DNA of 64,000 nt from Escherichia phage vB_EcoM_Skers, in the sequence record MW748999.1; one strand, given 5' to 3'. Within the stretch, counting starts at the first letter, position 1. Each line of letters starts with the position of its first letter. Position numbers and translations under genes: made by a program. The notes under the pieces were generated by a model. It saw only the letters and a list, made by a program, of their open reading frames with translations. It did no database searches and was not told where the DNA came from. This document shows, in pieces, positions 43,519 through 51,448 of this stretch.

Positions 43519-44658
43519 ATGACACAAGAGATAGAATTACGCAATACTGGAATTAAGTTTGCGCATTTCGACGAAGACTCCGCGACATTTACAAGCATTT
43601 CAGAAAACAACTCTGTGATGTATAAGCTGGAAGTGCGCGGATCTAATGCAGATTCTACCAAACCAGCAAGGATTAGATTTAATGGAGCGGAGATCGTTGG
43701 TACTGGCTATGAAAATGGCCTAAATTTTAAAGTTCTTACTCCAACTGGACAACTACACGAAGAAAAGGTATTCTATGGTCGCGGTGCTGTTTTGGCAATG
43801 CGTGATTATCTTTCTTTGCTGAAAGGTGACTATATCATTGCGATGGCAACGCATGGAGAATTGTTTGCAGATCCGATAAGTGATGTTGTATTTTCTAAGA
43901 TGGGATCTGTATCATTCCCGAATCACATTTTGTTACAGCAAATGCCTCGTGTATCCTATGCAGCAATTTATTCTACTAAAATGGGTAAAATTGTGTGTGA
44001 AGGGATGCAAGCAACGAACGGGGAAGGTCAAGATTCGTCTATACAGATCGAGAAAGTTTATGATACTATAGACGATCTTGCAATAACAGGAACACCACAA
44101 CGATTTTTAGATTATCCGGTTGAGTATGTTAGCGAAGATGCCGAACATTTCGAGCTAATACAATGGCCTCATGATGAGATCAGCGCACCACTTGAATATT
44201 TTAACATAAAGGCAGGTGACAAACTATCAATATCCTTTGAATTGTTCCGTGATAGTGCCGCAGCCGCAGCCAACGTAACAGCGCGTTTCTATCACAACTA
44301 CTTCACTGATGGACAATATCAAACTGGCGTTCGTTATAATGCCAGCCAGAAAGATCAATGGGAAAAGTTTGAAGCCGTCTATACCGTACCGGAAGGAGTT
44401 GATAGTGTTACCACTGGTTGTATCAGATATCCAACCAACTCAAATGAAGGTATTGTTAAAATTAGAAACATACTAATAACGCCGATCAGTGGAGTCGTCA
44501 AAACTACTGGTCCTACTTCATTTGGTGTTAATGGTGTTAGAACAACTCATATTCAGGATAACGGTGATTTTACTAACCCTGTAATGAGTCTTCTTAAACT
44601 ACCAAGAGACAATAAACATATCACATCCAACAACTTTAAAGAGTTTGATGTTGATTAA
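43519..44658 (+). CDS. 35: Long tail fibre hinge protein gp35
   Basis: 379 aa (T4 gp35 is 372 aa); position between 34 and 36. Confidence 0.75.
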   Translation: MTQEIELRNTGIKFAHFDEDSATFTSISENNSVMYKLEVRGSNADSTKPARIRFNGAEIVGTGYENGLNFKVLTPTGQLHEEKVFYGRGAVLAMRDYLSLLKGDYIIAMATHGELFADPISDVVFSKMGSVSFPNHILLQQMPRVSYAAIYSTKMGKIVCEGMQATNGEGQDSSIQIEKVYDTIDDLAITGTPQRFLDYPVEYVSEDAEHFELIQWPHDEISAPLEYFNIKAGDKLSISFELFRDSAAAAANVTARFYHNYFTDGQYQTGVRYNASQKDQWEKFEAVYTVPEGVDSVTTGCIRYPTNSNEGIVKIRNILITPISGVVKTTGPTSFGVNGVRTTHIQDNGDFTNPVMSLLKLPRDNKHITSNNFKEFDVD

Positions 44659-44668
44659 CATTTTTAAC

Positions 44669-44699
44669 AAGCCGATCCTCGTGGTCGGCTTTATTTTTA
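44669..44699 (+). terminator. Intrinsic terminator after gene 35
   Basis: AAGCCGATCCtcgtGGTCGGCTT followed by TATTTTTAT. Confidence 0.7.
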
Positions 44700-44860: not shown

Positions 44861-46351
44861 ATGGCAGATTTGAAACATGGATCTACTGTAGGCGGATCTC
44901 CCATTTGGACGCAAGGAAACTTGACGATCCAGCCAGCGGGTGATCAGCTTTTCTACAAAGGTCATAAAATCTATACCGCTTTTGATAAACCTTCGGCTGC
45001 CGATTTTGATGCTGTTAGTGCATCCGAAGGTGGTACATTTCAGAAACTGGTCCATTTTGAGGAAGGTTTAAGCGTAGGTAGCGCATCCGGTGGAGAAACC
45101 AAAAAGAACGGGATCTTTAAAGGAAATAGTGATGCGGCTAACTTTGATGGTGTAAGTTGGGGTTTGCATTCGTGGAAATCTATTGGTTTTGTTAATGCTC
45201 GTGATGATGTTATCATGGCTTATATTGACACTACCACAGGTGATTTTAAAACTAAAGGGACTATCGAAGGGACAACCATTAAAGACACAGGTCAACGCGT
45301 CTATAGCCCTGTTAATAAACCAACGAATAATGATTTAGATTTGGTGTCTCGTCGCGGTGATACCCTCACAGGAACATATAATTTAAACACTGTCACTGTT
45401 AAACTATCGGTTGATTCTAAATTAATTGCAAGGGAACGTGATTTAATTAATTTTGATGCGACTAAGATCTATTATGGTAACGTTCTTGATACGTTGGTCT
45501 TCCGAAGTAAAGATGAGCCTACCATTTTTGTTAATGGCAGAGAAGGTCGTTTTTATCACACCAACAATAAACCAACTAAAGCCGATGTTGGGCTAGGCAA
45601 TGTCACCAATGATGCACAGGTTAAACGTGCTGGTGATATTATGGAAGGTAACTTGCAAGCGCCTAGAATGTTGGCGACAAACGATCCTGCTGGTCCTAAT
45701 GAATTGGTTCGTTTGAGCTACTTTGAGAGAAAATCAATGGTAGCAAATCCAACCATCATTGGAAACGTTGATTGGAACACTCTTATTAATCGCGGTATCT
45801 ATCGTGTGGAAAATGCTGGGTCAGGTACTAATAAACCGTCTGATAGCTATTATAACGGCGTTTTGATGGTATATCGCCCAGAAGATGCGGTCGGTACTCG
45901 TCGAATTGTTCAGGTGTATTATCCTGAATCTATTGACCATCCGATGTGCTGGCGTTCGTGTTCTAATGAATCATGGACTGCATGGAACTATGTAGATCAC
46001 CGTAAATTGGCTGATATTCGCTATGTTAACGTCACTGGCGATACCATGACAGGACCGTTAACTGTTCCGGCTGCAAACGGTGTTCATACCGCAGAAGCTA
46101 ACTATAATGGTGATAATTGCTACGCTGGACTTAATAGCTTAAATGGTACAGCAATGATTTATCGTGTTAGCGATATTAAAGCGCACGAGAAACTAGGAAT
46201 CACACATGATTCTAAAATTATTTTCGTTAAATCTCGTGACAATACTCAGGACACCGATACCTTTGAATTATACCACGAAGGACATAAACCAACTCCTGAT
46301 GAGGTTGGCGCGGTTCCGCTCAATGCGGTAATTGATTTTGGTACTTTCTAA
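44861..46351 (+). CDS. 36: Long tail fibre distal connector gp36 (enlarged)
   Basis: N-terminus MADLKHGSTVGGSPIWTQGN...PAGD...YKGHKIY matches recalled T4 gp36; 496 aa versus 221 aa in T4. Confidence 0.8.
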   Translation: MADLKHGSTVGGSPIWTQGNLTIQPAGDQLFYKGHKIYTAFDKPSAADFDAVSASEGGTFQKLVHFEEGLSVGSASGGETKKNGIFKGNSDAANFDGVSWGLHSWKSIGFVNARDDVIMAYIDTTTGDFKTKGTIEGTTIKDTGQRVYSPVNKPTNNDLDLVSRRGDTLTGTYNLNTVTVKLSVDSKLIARERDLINFDATKIYYGNVLDTLVFRSKDEPTIFVNGREGRFYHTNNKPTKADVGLGNVTNDAQVKRAGDIMEGNLQAPRMLATNDPAGPNELVRLSYFERKSMVANPTIIGNVDWNTLINRGIYRVENAGSGTNKPSDSYYNGVLMVYRPEDAVGTRRIVQVYYPESIDHPMCWRSCSNESWTAWNYVDHRKLADIRYVNVTGDTMTGPLTVPAANGVHTAEANYNGDNCYAGLNSLNGTAMIYRVSDIKAHEKLGITHDSKIIFVKSRDNTQDTDTFELYHEGHKPTPDEVGAVPLNAVIDFGTF

Positions 46352-46356
46352 TATTA

Positions 46357-46378
46357 GCGGGGATTTCCCCCGCTTTTC
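46357..46378 (+). terminator. Hairpin terminator/attenuator after gene 36
   Basis: AGCGGGGatttcCCCCGCT followed by TTTT. Confidence 0.6.
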
Positions 46379-46419: not shown

Positions 46420-49400
46420 ATGGCAGATTTAAACAGAATCCAGTTTAAACGCACTAGCGCAGCCGGACGTAAACCGGATGCTGGTACGATGAATCCGGGA
46501 GAGTTGGCAATTAACTTAGCAGACCAATATCTGCTTACAAAAAATGATGGTGGGCAAATTGTTAATTTAAGTTGCCCGCCAGTTTATGACAAGAGCGTAG
46601 ATCGGAAGAGCACACCGTCTGAACTCCAGTCACCGGCTATGATCTCGTTGACCGCCGTGGTCTACACGGCCCTGAACACTCTTTCCTACACGACGCTCTT
46701 CCGATCTGCAGATTTAAACAGAATCCAGTTTAAACGCACTAGCGCAGCCGGACGTAAACCGGATGCTGGTACGATGAATCCGGGAGAGTTGGCAATTAAC
46801 TTAGCAGACCAATATCTGCTTACAAAAAATGATGGTGGGCAAATTGTTAATTTAAGTTGCCCGCCAGTTTATGACAAGAGCGTTAATGTAAAAGGTCGTG
46901 TGGTTGCAGATGACCTTATGTGGAGTAATACCGCAAACTATTTCGATGACCCAACCGCACGGAATCTTGATAAATTCGGTGCATTTCGTACTAATGATAT
47001 GGATGGTCATCTAGCATTGGCTTTGCATATTCCTCATCCTAGCGGTATAAACCATGCTCGTGGGTTGGATTTTACTTATGGTTCTAACGTTGTTCCTACT
47101 GTAAAAACCTATGGTTATAACGCTGATGGTGCATTGGCATATTCATATCGCATGTATCACGAAGGTGATAAGCCTAGTCCGTCAGAATTAAATGTATACA
47201 GCAAACAAGAAGTAGATCGGATGTTCCAGAAGACCATCAACTTTGGTGTAGAAACTGGATGGTTTAAAATTGCTACAGCATTTATTCCGCAAAATGATGG
47301 ACGTAGCTTGAAAATTAGATTGGTTGGTGGAAATGGGTGGAACGTAGGCCAAACGGGACAATGTAATATTATTGAACTTGTTATAAGGACTAGCAACGGT
47401 TCCCCTAAAGGAATTAACTTTGTTGCATATCATCATGTTTCTGGTTACGAAAATCAATTTTGTGCCATTAATACAGGTGATGACACTTATGATATCTATG
47501 CATATTACTACGAATTTACTAATATGGTATTGGCTGAATATCAAGCGTCCAGCGATGTTAATTTAACTGTATTTGATCGACCTGAATATGTAGGCGAAAA
47601 ACCTGTAGCTGATCATATCTATGATGCATATACAATACGCTCCTTTAACAGTTTCAGTAACCGTGGAACATTAAATTTTGCTGGCAACCATCAAGGCCAA
47701 TATGACATTGAGCATATGAACGAACAACCGACAAATGCTAAAAAGATGTTGCGTCGGTTTCGAAGCTCTGCCAGCGCGACAATCTGGCATGAAACCGTTG
47801 ATGACCAGAATTATCGTCTTGCCGCTGGAAGTACAGACTCAAGTCAACAATTATTGTTGTCTACTGGGACTGGTTTGCATATTCGTAGATTGACCATCGA
47901 TGGTGGCTTAGGTTCCGGTTCTAATGCTGGTATTGATATTCGTCGAGGACCAAACGAATCAAGCCATTTTAATTTTATGGATTATCGCACTGGTCAAGAT
48001 GTTCGTAATGGTTGGTTTGGTTTTGGTGATTTGACGACCAAAGATTTTATTTGGTGGAACGATAACGGTCAAAACTCGATAAACTTGATCGAAAACGGTG
48101 AATTACATATTACTGGTGGTAAAGGCCAGAAAATTGTAATGAATAGCGAAGTTGCATTATCTGAAAATGCTCGTTTGGCTGTTAAAGGTGGTAATTATGG
48201 TTTGTTGTTCCGTAATGATGGTGTTAGTTTCCATATACTGACTACTAATTTAAAGGATTCTTTTGGAAATTGGAATAATCGTAGACCATTTAGTTATGAT
48301 TTTGCCGAAGGTGGATTGGATCTAGGTGGTACTGAAACTGCTCGTTGTTTGCATCTGGGGATCGATGGTAGTACCCGCATCGAAGATAACTTAGTTTTCC
48401 GATCTGGGTCGCGTCAATCAATGGACTATATTGAAATGATCCATTGGGGTAACAGTAATACAGGACGCAACAACGTTTTGAGTATGAAAGACTCGAAAGG
48501 ATTCTTGGCTGAATTTGAGCGCACCGGAACCAATAGCATTAAAACTAGATTCTTTGGTGAAACATTCACTGATGGTACATTATACCTAAATCAGATGAAT
48601 AATAGCTCTGAACGATTCTCTATCAATAATTGGGGAAATTCAGAAGTTGGTCGCGCGGCAGTCTTAGAAGTTGGTGATTCTAAAGGTTATCACTTTTATG
48701 CTGAACGCAGGACTGATAATAGTTCTTTGTTCTCTGTTGGTGGTGCTTTGTTTGTGCAGGGACCTTCCGGGATTATTATCAAAAACTCTGCTGGTGCTCG
48801 CCATGTTTGGTTTAAAGATGACGGTGATAATGAAAAGGCTGTTATTTGGGCGACCGATGAAGGTATATTACATCTACGAAATAATCATGATGGTGCATTT
48901 AGTCATCACTTCCAGGGCGCAATGATTAAACTGCAAGGGCGTGTTCCTTATGATGCAGCAAAGGGAATTGTTCGTGGTGAAGTTTCTGGTGGTGCATATG
49001 TTGCATGGAGAGACCGCCCTGCTGGTTTGTTAGTTGACTGCCAGCAAAGTGTTGATAGTGCTCATGCTGTTTGGAAAGCGGTTGATTGGGGGCGTCAATA
49101 TATCGCTGCTATGGACGTTCACTGTCCTGGTGATGGTAATAATACCGCAGCCGCTGTTCTTCATGTTCAGGCTGCTGATTATCAATTCCATGCAAGCGGA
49201 GAATTTCATGCCAGTGGCAACGGAAACTTTAACGATGTGTATATTCGTTCTGACCGTCGCCTTAAAGACAATATAGAAGATTATACTGGAAATGCGTTAA
49301 GTTTGATTGGTAAACTGAAAGTGAAAACTTACGATAAAGTTAAATCTCTTAAGGACCGTGAAATTATCGGTCACGAGATCGGCATTATCGCACAGGATTT

Positions 49401-49602
49401 ACAAGAAATATTACCGGAAGCTGTAAAATCTTCAAAAATTGGCAATCTTGATAATCCAGATGAAATTCTGACAATTTCTAACTCTGCCGTGAATGCTCTT
49501 TTAATTAAGGCTATTCAGGAAATGAGTGAAGAAATTAAAGAATTGAAAACACCTCTCTTTACTAAAATTGCTCGCAAAATTAGTAAATATTTTAAATTCT
49601 AA
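46420..49602 (+). CDS. 37: Long tail fibre distal subunit gp37 with C-terminal intramolecular chaperone domain; reading frame includes a 285-bp probable assembly artefact
   Basis: N-terminus MADLNRIQFKRTSAAGRKP...GELAINL matches gp37; C-terminal SDRRLKDNIEDY chaperone-type motif; codons 60-154 derive from adapter plus duplication. Confidence 0.85.
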   Translation: MADLNRIQFKRTSAAGRKPDAGTMNPGELAINLADQYLLTKNDGGQIVNLSCPPVYDKSVDRKSTPSELQSPAMISLTAVVYTALNTLSYTTLFRSADLNRIQFKRTSAAGRKPDAGTMNPGELAINLADQYLLTKNDGGQIVNLSCPPVYDKSVNVKGRVVADDLMWSNTANYFDDPTARNLDKFGAFRTNDMDGHLALALHIPHPSGINHARGLDFTYGSNVVPTVKTYGYNADGALAYSYRMYHEGDKPSPSELNVYSKQEVDRMFQKTINFGVETGWFKIATAFIPQNDGRSLKIRLVGGNGWNVGQTGQCNIIELVIRTSNGSPKGINFVAYHHVSGYENQFCAINTGDDTYDIYAYYYEFTNMVLAEYQASSDVNLTVFDRPEYVGEKPVADHIYDAYTIRSFNSFSNRGTLNFAGNHQGQYDIEHMNEQPTNAKKMLRRFRSSASATIWHETVDDQNYRLAAGSTDSSQQLLLSTGTGLHIRRLTIDGGLGSGSNAGIDIRRGPNESSHFNFMDYRTGQDVRNGWFGFGDLTTKDFIWWNDNGQNSINLIENGELHITGGKGQKIVMNSEVALSENARLAVKGGNYGLLFRNDGVSFHILTTNLKDSFGNWNNRRPFSYDFAEGGLDLGGTETARCLHLGIDGSTRIEDNLVFRSGSRQSMDYIEMIHWGNSNTGRNNVLSMKDSKGFLAEFERTGTNSIKTRFFGETFTDGTLYLNQMNNSSERFSINNWGNSEVGRAAVLEVGDSKGYHFYAERRTDNSSLFSVGGALFVQGPSGIIIKNSAGARHVWFKDDGDNEKAVIWATDEGILHLRNNHDGAFSHHFQGAMIKLQGRVPYDAAKGIVRGEVSGGAYVAWRDRPAGLLVDCQQSVDSAHAVWKAVDWGRQYIAAMDVHCPGDGNNTAAAVLHVQAADYQFHASGEFHASGNGNFNDVYIRSDRRLKDNIEDYTGNALSLIGKLKVKTYDKVKSLKDREIIGHEIGIIAQDLQEILPEAVKSSKIGNLDNPDEILTISNSAVNALLIKAIQEMSEEIKELKTPLFTKIARKISKYFKF
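46423..46598 (+). repeat. Direct repeat copy 1 (176 bp) flanking adapter-derived insert
   Basis: Identical to 46708..46883. Confidence 0.9.
46599..46707. other. Illumina adapter-derived sequence (sequencing/assembly artefact)
   Basis: Contains AGATCGGAAGAGCACAC(C)GTCTGAACTCCAGTCAC and ACACTCTTTCC(-)TACACGACGCTCTTCCGATCT, near-exact TruSeq adapter sequences. Confidence 0.9.
46708..46883 (+). repeat. Direct repeat copy 2 (176 bp)
   Basis: Identical to 46423..46598; offset 285 bp keeps gp37 frame. Confidence 0.9.
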
Positions 49603-49606
49603 CAAC

Positions 49607-49626
49607 AAGGGGGCGTTGCCCCCTTT
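49607..49626 (+). terminator. Hairpin (weak terminator/attenuator) between genes 37 and 38
   Basis: AAGGGGGcgttgCCCCCTT followed by a short T-run. Confidence 0.4.
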
Positions 49627-49638
49627 GGAGTATAAATT

Positions 49639-50418
49639 ATGGCAGTAGTTGGTGTTCCTGGTTGGATTGGAAGTTCAGCCGCAAATGAAACAGGACAACG
49701 TTGGATGAGTCAAGCGGCTGGACAATTAAGATTGGGTGTTCCCTGCTGGATGAGTCAATTTGCAGGTCGCTCGCGAGAAATTATTCATACTGTAGGAGCA
49801 AACCACAATTTTAATGGCCAGTGGTTCCGTGATAGATGCTTTGAAGCTGGCGGTGCACCTATTGTATTCAATATTGTCGGTGATATCGTTTCTTATTCTA
49901 AAGATGTACCACTTTTCTTTATGTATGGAGATACACCTAATGAATATGTGGTTCTTAATATTCATGGCGGAGTTCATATGTGGGGACGAGGTGGTAACGG
50001 TACTGTAAACGGAAACCCGGGCACAAATGGCGGCGATGTAATCCAAAATGATATCGGCGGAAGACTTCGTATTTGGAACTATGGCGTTATTGCATCAGGC
50101 GGCGGCGGTGGTGGTGCAGTGTCATTACAGAATAGCTGGGCGCCAAATGCTACAGCAGGTGGCGGTGGTGGTAGACCATTTGGCATCGGCGGAGGCGGCG
50201 TTAATTGGCCGGGTGGTAATGCTAGTTATGACGCACCGGGCGGAGCCGGTTACACTTCCCAATTCGGCGGAGGCAATGGCGGTGATGCTGGAGGTTGGGG
50301 TGGAGATGGATGGGGTAATCACTTATCTAGATCCGGCGGTGGTGCTCCAGGTAGAGCGGTATTCGGTTCTTCACCATCATGGGGTGCTGTAGGGACAATT
50401 TATGGATCTTACATTTAA
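49639..50418 (+). CDS. 38: Tail fibre adhesin gp38 (T2-type, glycine-rich motifs)
   Basis: N-terminus [28 protein letters not shown] matches T2-type gp38 as recalled; C-terminal half has multiple poly-Gly runs (GGGGGG) separating short variable segments. Confidence 0.85.
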
Positions 50419-50478
50419 CCGTTAAAAAAGAATTAAGGAAAACTCCCACGGAAGGGAACTTACTAAGGAGAAACGGCT

Positions 50479-50718
50479 ATGGTCTATAATATCGTCATTG
50501 GTGCTTTGTCTAATTTCGGAATGAAACTATTATCAAAGTTAATTAGTGAAAAGATGCTCACTAAAATTTTCTTCTACTGCGCTCGTCGTCTTGCGGCTTA
50601 TACCAATACGCCAATTGATGATCGTTTTGTGGAAGAACTTTATAAGGAGTTTAATAAAGATCAGTCAGAAGATAGTAACGAGCAAGATAAACCTAGTGAT
50701 AGTCAAGTACCTAAATAA
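50479..50718 (+). CDS. Hypothetical protein (79 aa), hydrophobic N-terminus
   Basis: ORF between gene 38 and t with SD AAGGAG. Confidence 0.5.
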   Translation: MVYNIVIGALSNFGMKLLSKLISEKMLTKIFFYCARRLAAYTNTPIDDRFVEELYKEFNKDQSEDSNEQDKPSDSQVPK

Positions 50719-50751: not shown

Positions 50752-51408
50752 ATGCAAGTTTCTGAAAAAGAGAAAGACTTTGCTATCTCAAATGTCCTGC
50801 GCGCTATTTTCACAACTAAAAGCACGGAGTTGCTCGTACTTCGTGTTTTTGCTGCCGTCGTGTTGTCCATATTAGCATTTGTCGTTTATAGTAAAAACGA
50901 GTTATTTGCCTTGTATAAAGAGACTCGTTATGAGACTTATGCTCACGTTCTCCAGGTAGAGAAAGACCGCAATTTTGATAATGCAGCACAGGAGCAGTTA
51001 CAGATAGTTCATGTGTCGGCTGATGCCGATTTTTCTGCTGTTTTTAGTTTTCGTCCGAAAAACCTAAACTATTTTGTTGATTTGGTGGCATATGAAGGAA
51101 AGCTACCACATACAATCGATGAAAAGAATTTAGGCGGATTCCCTATCAATAAAACGAGTGAAGAATATCGTAGGCATCTTTTAGGTAAATCATATTTTAC
51201 CGATAAAGATTTCCAGTATATTCCATCGAGGGAGAAAAAATTAGAGAATATCGATATAGGGTTTATGTATTCTTGTCCTATATTCAATCTCGATAATGTC
51301 TATTCTGGTAGTATTGCCATTGCATGGAAGAATAAACCAGATATTGACATTGAGAATTTAGATACTCTTTGTAATCAATCTGCCAGAATCCTCGGAAGGA
51401 TTAGATAA
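50752..51408 (+). CDS. t: Holin
   Basis: 218 aa, same as T4 T; LEQLQIVHVSADADFSAVFSFRPKNLNYFVDLVAYEGKLP and CNQSARILGR match recalled T4 holin. Confidence 0.92.
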   Translation: MQVSEKEKDFAISNVLRAIFTTKSTELLVLRVFAAVVLSILAFVVYSKNELFALYKETRYETYAHVLQVEKDRNFDNAAQEQLQIVHVSADADFSAVFSFRPKNLNYFVDLVAYEGKLPHTIDEKNLGGFPINKTSEEYRRHLLGKSYFTDKDFQYIPSREKKLENIDIGFMYSCPIFNLDNVYSGSIAIAWKNKPDIDIENLDTLCNQSARILGRIR

Positions 51409-51412
51409 AATT

Positions 51413-51448
51413 AAAGGGGAAGCCTTTCGGCTTCCCCTTCTTTTTTTA
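51413..51448. terminator. Bidirectional intrinsic terminator between convergent genes
   Basis: GGGGAAGCCtttcGGCTTCCCC flanked by A-run and T-run. Confidence 0.75.

Follow-up and report, generated by a model that had tools for sequence, protein, structure and literature searches.

Domain architecture and mosaic ancestry of a probable T2/S16-type long-tail-fiber tip in the Krischvirus Escherichia phage vB_EcoM_Skers

The C-terminal chaperone domain of gp37

We analyzed the two genes at the distal end of the long-tail-fiber operon of Escherichia phage vB_EcoM_Skers, g37 and g38, within a 64,000-nucleotide (nt) stretch of its sequence record MW748999.1, hereafter called the window. The plus strand of this 64-kb window carries a T4-type long-tail-fiber operon, as read from its open reading frames (ORFs) and their Pfam matches, and g38 starts 36 nt past the stop codon of g37. 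An earlier reading of the letters and ORFs alone (the sequence-only reading) had proposed that gp37 ends in a chaperone-type domain and that a T2-type gp38 stays on the fiber tip as the adhesin. The two genes and the main elements of g37 are the following.

46420-49602, plus strand: gp37, the distal long-tail-fiber subunit (ORF; Pfam Gp34_trimer and Peptidase_S74)
46599-46883, plus strand: almost certainly an assembly artifact, 285 nt, in frame (adapter dimer and second repeat copy)
49234-49248, plus strand: DVYIR, the last strand of mature gp37 and predicted docking surface for gp38 (invariant in five gp37 homologues)
49249-49599, plus strand: Peptidase_S74 intramolecular chaperone domain, S944-F1060, 117 amino acids (aa), 13.2 kDa (Pfam, PDB, and PHROG matches)
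49627-49630, plus strand: ribosome-binding site of gp38, GGAG
49639-50418, plus strand: gp38, a T2-type tail-fiber adhesin, 259 aa, 26.2 kDa (Pfam, PDB, and phrog_2056)

As written in the record, gp37 has 1060 aa, and it is 91% identical over its full length to gp37 of the Krischvirus phiS. Part of this length comes from an exact 176-nt direct repeat (46423-46598 equals 46708-46883). The 109 nt between the two copies (46599-46707) are an Illumina TruSeq adapter dimer with index-like octamers, which matches the canonical read-1 adapter at 34 of 34 positions with one extra base and the universal adapter at 32 of 33. None of phiS, kvi, and RB49 has the 285-nt segment, which almost certainly arose during assembly at a former contig end. 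The ORF reads through it and gains 95 spurious residues; without them, gp37 has ∼965 aa (107.1 kDa). The artifact leaves the finding at the fiber tip unaffected and shifts residue numbers by 95, so that the predicted cleavage serine, S944 as deposited, is S849 in the 965-aa protein.

The last 117 residues, at the extreme C terminus of gp37, contain the Peptidase_S74 domain (PF13884), a family that Pfam describes as 'chaperone of endosialidase'. The match covers aa 944-1003 and model positions 1-58 of 58 with an E value of 1.9e-15 and a score of 57.3 bits, the family cut-off being 22 bits. The sequence-only reading had recognized this chaperone-type domain and put its length at ∼115 residues; the start that it gave, 49260, lies within the domain, which actually begins 11 nt earlier at 49249, an immaterial difference. 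The domain opens at S944 (codon 49249-49251) with SDRRLKDNIEDY and has K949 at 49264-49266. In endosialidase domains, the Ser at the cleavage site and a Lys five residues on are catalytic. The corresponding S-D-x-x-x-K pattern is present in gp37 as S944-D-R-R-L-K949, with Ser and Lys invariant in five homologues and aligned to S-SDRRIK of S16, and the junction motif reads DVYIR^SDRRLK. Beyond the junction, a five-sequence alignment of Krischvirus and Tequatrovirus gp37 revealed FNDVYIRSD-RLK, GIIAQDL, LPEAV, and LTISNSAVNALLIKA as invariant blocks.

Alignment of the gp37 C terminus with known chaperone domains, which had been suggested as a check, bore out the assignment. Using phmmer against PDB sequences, the domain matched the S16 gp37 tip construct 6F45_A (E 3.7e-6), with ...DVYIRSDRRLKD of the window gp37 aligned to ...DLNVSSDRRIKK of S16; other matches were the autocleaving MYRF domain 7DC3 and the tail fiber 8JOV. 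A profile made from five gp37 C termini improved the S16 match to E 9.6e-8. Endosialidase chaperone-domain structures in the PDB were not among the matches of this profile, and the link to these domains therefore comes from the Pfam model; interferon-gamma matches in this search, at E about 0.1, were dismissed as noise. The gp37 domain shares with the endosialidase and tailspike chaperone domains of PF13884 the Pfam family, the C-terminal position, and a Ser at its start that is followed five residues later by a Lys. In the endosialidases the cargo is an enzyme tailspike, whereas in the window it is a fiber shaft, whose cleaved end would dock a second protein. Within PHROGs, the 117-aa domain matched the very C-terminal ends of 36 tail-fiber families, a pattern that, judged from these matches, appears to be the behavior of a promiscuous C-terminal module. 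A tblastn search of the window for a second chaperone domain returned the known copies only.

We considered whether the S74-like domain might be a degenerate remnant that does not cleave and is kept on the fiber, with gp38 binding elsewhere or not at all. Such a remnant would fit with a PDB profile search that missed the endosialidase chaperone domains and with the fact that cleavage is deduced here from homologues. It would be hard to reconcile with the state of the domain, in which the Ser, the Lys, GIIAQD, and the whole core are intact and invariant across five homologues from two genera. In addition, the Pfam score is well above the threshold and equal to that of T2, whose gp37 is processed (PMC3157838). 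We regard a non-cleaving remnant as highly improbable.

The gp38 adhesin and a model of the fiber tip

The gene following g37 encodes a gp38 with the conserved T2-type N terminus, as the sequence-only reading had noticed. The protein matched two Pfam families that together span almost its whole length, Gp38_N (PF21721; aa 1-42, E 6.7e-20, 71.3 bits, cut-off 25) and GP38 (PF05268; aa 47-258, E 2.2e-80, 270.1 bits, cut-off 25), as well as phrog_2056, annotated 'tail fiber protein; host specificity' (E 4e-107). Among structures, it matched the receptor-binding domain of PP01 gp38 (9V85, E 1.3e-71) and, over its full length, S16 gp38 (6F45_D, E 1.1e-46). The partner of a T2-type gp38 is in place too, g38 lying directly 3' of a g37 whose product carries the chaperone domain. 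The domains and segments of gp38 are as follows, with residue numbers of gp38; GRM stands for Gly-rich motif and HVS for hypervariable segment.

49639-49764, plus strand: N-terminal attachment domain, aa 1-42, with W9, W22, and W37 (Gp38_N)
49984-50352, plus strand: specificity domain, aa 116-238 (seven-sequence alignment, per-segment identities)
Gly-rich motifs within it: GRM1 116-121, GRM2 154-159, GRM3 174-182, GRM4 211-215, GRM5 234-238
Hypervariable segments within it: HVS1 122-153, HVS2 160-173, HVS3 183-210, HVS4 216-233

The N-terminal part of gp38 is strongly conserved, with 44 to 46 of residues 1-46 identical in six relatives. W9, W22, and W37 are invariant in seven sequences and correspond in the alignment to the three Trp residues of S16 gp38; such Trp residues have been described as prongs that plug into the tip of gp37 (Salem et al., PMC7917993). 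The C-terminal half of gp38, which the sequence-only reading had described as poly-Gly runs between variable loops, could be mapped residue by residue. Its five Gly-rich motifs and four hypervariable segments fit exactly the scheme of Trojet et al. 2011 (PMC3157838), in which five such motifs divide four such segments. Of the 123 residues of the specificity domain, 47 are glycine. GRM1-5 are invariant or nearly so (in phiS and kvi, GRM4 and GRM5 are identical at 3 to 5 of 5 positions), and the variation among relatives falls almost wholly within the hypervariable segments. HVS2 illustrates this best: 0 or 1 of its 14 residues are identical in phiS and kvi, and all 14 in four phages that group with OmpF-dependent adhesins.

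From these observations and the homologous systems we consider it very likely that the locus encodes the distal tip of a long tail fiber of the T2/S16 type in an RB49-like (Krischvirus) phage. In the model that we propose, folding of the gp37 trimer would be aided by its own C-terminal 117-residue intramolecular chaperone domain, which would then cleave itself off between R943 and S944 (R848/S849 without the artifact), with S944 and K949 as the catalytic pair. In artifact-free numbering the predicted products are a mature fiber protein of 848 aa (93.9 kDa) ending in DVYIR and a 13.2-kDa fragment. One gp38 monomer would dock on the exposed trimeric tip via its N-terminal domain, with W9, W22, and W37 as prongs, and would remain part of the virion, where it would bind the receptor. 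The polyglycine core of gp38 would be formed by its five Gly-rich motifs, and the distal loops that contact the receptor by its four hypervariable segments. All sequence-level features of this T2/S16-type architecture are present, which supports the interpretation made in the earlier reading, and nothing in the sequence opposes it; both cleavage and a virion-bound gp38 are predicted by homology.

Several studies describe the steps of this model in related phages. For the Salmonella phage S16, Dunne et al. 2018, in the part quoted in PMC7917993, identified the last 113 residues of gp37 as an intramolecular chaperone domain whose autocleavage exposes the docking surface for gp38. 6F45 is listed in the PDB with three chains of gp37 and one of gp38, a count consistent with one adhesin per fiber. 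The gp37 proteins of the fPS phages have the junction DVYIR^SDGRLK, and cleavage after DVYIR was predicted by alignment to the S16 site DLNVS^SDRRIKK (PMC7917993). Cleavage of gp37 precedes capping by gp38 in T2 and T6 (PMC3157838), and the same model of cleavage followed by gp38 was put forward for RB49 and 'the vast majority of T-even-like phages' (Golomidova et al., PMC9569957).

S16 and T2 resemble the window phage closely. In S16, g37 is likewise followed by g38, and a chaperone domain of a similar size (∼113-117 aa) opens with S-D-R-R-x-K; S16 gp38 has the three-Trp attachment domain, the polyglycine sandwich, and the distal loops. The two differ in the residues before the cleavage site (DLNVS in S16, DVYIR in the window) and in their hypervariable loops; the receptor of S16 is Salmonella OmpC, whereas the window loops match OmpF-type adhesins. 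In T2 (AP018813), gp37 scored 56.5 bits against Peptidase_S74 and gp38 267 bits against GP38. The T2 junction NVYIR-SDIRLK has VYIR-SD-RLK in common with the window, and T2 gp38 (50% identical) shows the same order of Gly-rich and hypervariable parts with different loops. T2, a Tequatrovirus, has a longer gp37 (1341 aa), and most of its shaft is unrelated to that of the window gp37.

T4 shares with the window the locus, the gene names, and the gp34-gp37 fiber architecture. According to published descriptions (PMC3157838; PMC12892980), the T4 tip is built differently: T4 gp37 lacks a chaperone domain and binds the receptor with a tip of its own, and T4 gp38, which is unrelated, works as a chaperone and is not part of the virion. 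If the window phage followed T4, gp38 would act only in the assembly of gp37 and be released after folding, and the gp37 tip would bind the receptor. Several GenBank records indeed label close homologues of gp38 'long tail fiber assembly chaperone/catalyst', and T2-type gp38 is said to help gp37 assembly before remaining attached (PMC7917993). However, we consider the 'catalyst' labels to be legacy transfers of the T4 gene name. The Pfam searches found none of the features of a T4-type tip, the gp37 C terminus being a removable Peptidase_S74 chaperone domain rather than a T4-type needle domain and gp38 matching adhesin families only. Moreover, gp38 belongs to both GP38 and Gp38_N, and its homology to the adhesins of S16 and PP01, which were solved structurally on the fiber tip or as the tip itself, extends over the full length. 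Its variation among relatives is concentrated in loops, as expected of a receptor binder. A chaperone-only role for gp38 is therefore scarcely credible, and we retain the T2/S16-type reading.

The sequence-only reading had presented the chaperone domain together with the gp38 adhesin. This framing needs correcting in one respect, as the pairing is archetypal rather than unusual: T2 has both elements. For T2, the architecture, the chemistry of cleavage, and what the gp38 loops do have been established since the 1980s; structural work on S16 followed in 2018, and RB49-like phages were added in 2022-2025. Hence, the architecture is already known and the window holds a routine instance of it. A literature search combining the BASEL phage ChristianSchoenbein with gp38 found nothing.

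Mosaic ancestry and the predicted receptor

We compared the locus with related phages by blastn breakpoints and a 100-nt identity scan. The backbone of the window phage is that of a Krischvirus; over 24 kb, it is ∼95% identical to GEC-3S and RB49. Identity to Krischvirus genomes stays at 93-97% as far as the beginning of g37 and returns precisely at 50425, and the following module lies in between.

48538-50425, plus strand: mosaic module comprising the distal third of gp37, the chaperone domain, and gp38 (blastn breakpoints, 100-nt identity scan)

This module matches Tequatrovirus and Mosigvirus phages, phage 132 at 88.8%. Within it, positions 50000-50299 are 96-99% identical at the DNA level to 132, fPS-90, and phiC120 and 45-59% identical to phiS and kvi; FL33 is 88-98% identical over the same positions and 88-94% identical from 50100. 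Because this region is near Tequatrovirus and Mosigvirus and far from phiS and kvi, the gp38 specificity domain appears to have been exchanged across genera. Exchanges of gp38 specificity domains between genera are known for this locus (PMC3157838; PMC12032242).

The phages with the most similar gp38 (the Yersinia phages fPS-90/fPS-2 and the E. coli phages FL33/FL34, 132, and phiC120; 94-96.5% identical) also have the DVYIR^SD junction. They belong to Tequatrovirus or Mosigvirus, and their gp37 shafts differ from that of the window phage, fPS-90 gp37 being 34% identical over the distal half. RB49, in turn, resembles the window phage in the order of gp35, gp36, the Dc5-like ORF, and the holin. 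Its gp37 also ends in FNDVYIR-SD and a chaperone domain, and its gp38 falls into the same Pfam families; the differences are a displaced g38 and a gp37 that is only 45% identical. In RB49 (AY343333, 45367-46143, minus strand) and most Krischvirus records, g38 lies at a distant early-gene locus, as Trojet et al. also stated for RB49 (PMC3157838), and g37 is directly followed by the small Dc5 ORF. The window phage, kvi, phiS, FL04, FL15, and FL20 have g38 in the canonical slot directly after g37. All Krischvirus records listed have one gp38 each. Searching the window with tblastn for a second gp38 returned the known copy only, and the displaced locus of the RB49 type lies outside the window.

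The stretches coding for GRM2 and GRM3 (50091-50115 and 50148-50172) form a 25-nt direct repeat of GGN codons that is 80% identical, and the left breakpoint (about 49900-50000) lies just upstream of GRM1. It has been proposed that crossovers at such repeats shuffle adhesins.

The adapter artifact in gp37 led us to consider whether the mosaic is itself an assembly product, the Tequatrovirus-like adhesin half (about 49970-50425) having been joined to a Krischvirus genome in a sample that contained two T4-like phages. Besides the artifact, the switch from Krischvirus to Tequatrovirus sequence is abrupt, lies in the conserved 5' half of g38, and is reversed at 50425, and an exact-sequence look-up in public assemblies did not find this gp38 elsewhere. 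Both junctions speak for a genuine sequence, however. The independent Krischvirus phiS is collinear with the window at 90% identity across the left junction (46708-49969). As for the right junction, 50425 is where the g38 insertion ends naturally in comparison with RB49. The reading frame is unbroken, and its five private substitutions relative to the four closest gp38 show that none of these was simply copied. Cross-genus exchange of gp38 specificity domains is documented besides (PMC3157838; PMC12032242). A chimeric assembly is therefore improbable, and we treat the mosaic as a property of the phage.

The phylogeny of gp38 predicts the receptor across Tequatrovirus, Mosigvirus, and Krischvirus (Lutz et al., PMC12032242). 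We compared the window gp38 with its four closest relatives, from fPS-90, phiC120, 132, and FL33, among which it is 96.5% identical to fPS-90 Gp38 and 93.8% identical to FL33 gp38. HVS1, HVS2, and HVS4 are identical to all four apart from one substitution, R220W. Two of these phages also share the whole of HVS3; fPS-90 has its own I183L at the start of HVS3, and FL33 differs at five positions. Genetic work identified OmpF and the lipopolysaccharide (LPS) core as the receptors of fPS-90 (PMC7917993), and FL33 is OmpF-dependent. As the hypervariable loops, R220W aside, match those of the OmpF-dependent fPS-90 and FL33 adhesins, OmpF is probably the primary receptor of the window phage, possibly in combination with the LPS core.

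The private substitutions of gp38 relative to these four sequences are A15, V105, W220, V251, and Y258, and only W220 is in a hypervariable segment. R220W (codon 50296-50298, HVS4) is absent from all other gp38 compared. Single substitutions in gp38 have been reported to change the host range in RB49 and the fPS phages, and R220W may mark a host-range variant. A bolder scenario is a recent cross-genus import, with crossovers in the 5' half of g38 and just past its stop codon, in which R220W would be adaptive and would alter or widen receptor use beyond OmpF; we consider this unlikely. More remote still is the variant in which an additional g38 is located outside the window at the displaced position known from RB49, giving the phage two alternative adhesins.

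Some points limit our overall reading of a T2/S16-type tip with an OmpF-directed adhesin. R220W could change the specificity of the adhesin, and FL33 and FL34 show a minor dependence on TolC in addition to OmpF. The artifact in gp37 demonstrates that the assembly is not flawless, and the endosialidase structures escaped the PDB profile search. While the domain identities, motifs, gene order, conservation pattern, and mosaic ancestry can be read directly at the locus, it is the homologues that point to cleavage, a 3:1 stoichiometry, gp38 in the virion, and the receptor.

Neighboring features and significance

Upstream and downstream of g37 and g38, the operon contains the following features.

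43519-44658, plus strand: gp35, the hinge protein
44861-46351, plus strand: gp36
49609-49623, plus strand: G+C-rich hairpin GGGGGC-GUU-GCCCCC between the g37 stop codon and the ribosome-binding site of gp38 (read from the sequence)
50479-50718, plus strand: 79-aa ORF between g38 and the t holin gene
50752-51408, plus strand: t holin

The 79-aa ORF is a homologue of Dc5/ORF251w of RB49 and matched phrog_402, a family of unknown function (E 5e-20); it had no match in Pfam. T2, fPS-90, and FL33 lack this Dc5-like ORF at the corresponding position. Residues 66-133 of gp35 (43714-43917) gave a weak match to the Pfam family ILEI (PF15711; E 5.7e-4, 20.8 bits), which is below the cut-off of 27 and probably due to chance. 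Two minus-strand ORFs inside g38 (49726-50046 and 50125-50322) were not accepted as genes; they are mechanical ORFs in a region rich in Gly codons, with no evidence for a gene.

Folding compared with shuffled sequences gave −15.5 kcal/mol (z −2.0) for the hairpin after g37, and −13.6 kcal/mol (z −2.8) for a second G+C-rich hairpin directly 3' of the g36 stop codon (46357-46375). A scan for consensus terminators did not flag either of them and picked out comparable sites 3' of gp35 (44669-44691) and t (51414-51439). We do not claim the hairpins after g36 and g37 as terminators, given that the scan passed over them and that they fold only moderately better than the shuffles; they could be structures that stabilize or attenuate transcripts in the late operon. 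The number of sigma-70-like promoters in the scan was below the shuffled expectation, a count that is not informative for a T4-type late operon.

The artifact inflates the deposited gp37 by 95 residues and needs to be corrected before the protein is modeled or engineered. The receptor prediction, OmpF and possibly the LPS core, may be useful in the design of phage cocktails. For the family, the locus adds another documented case in which an adhesin module appears to have been exchanged between genera of the Straboviridae.

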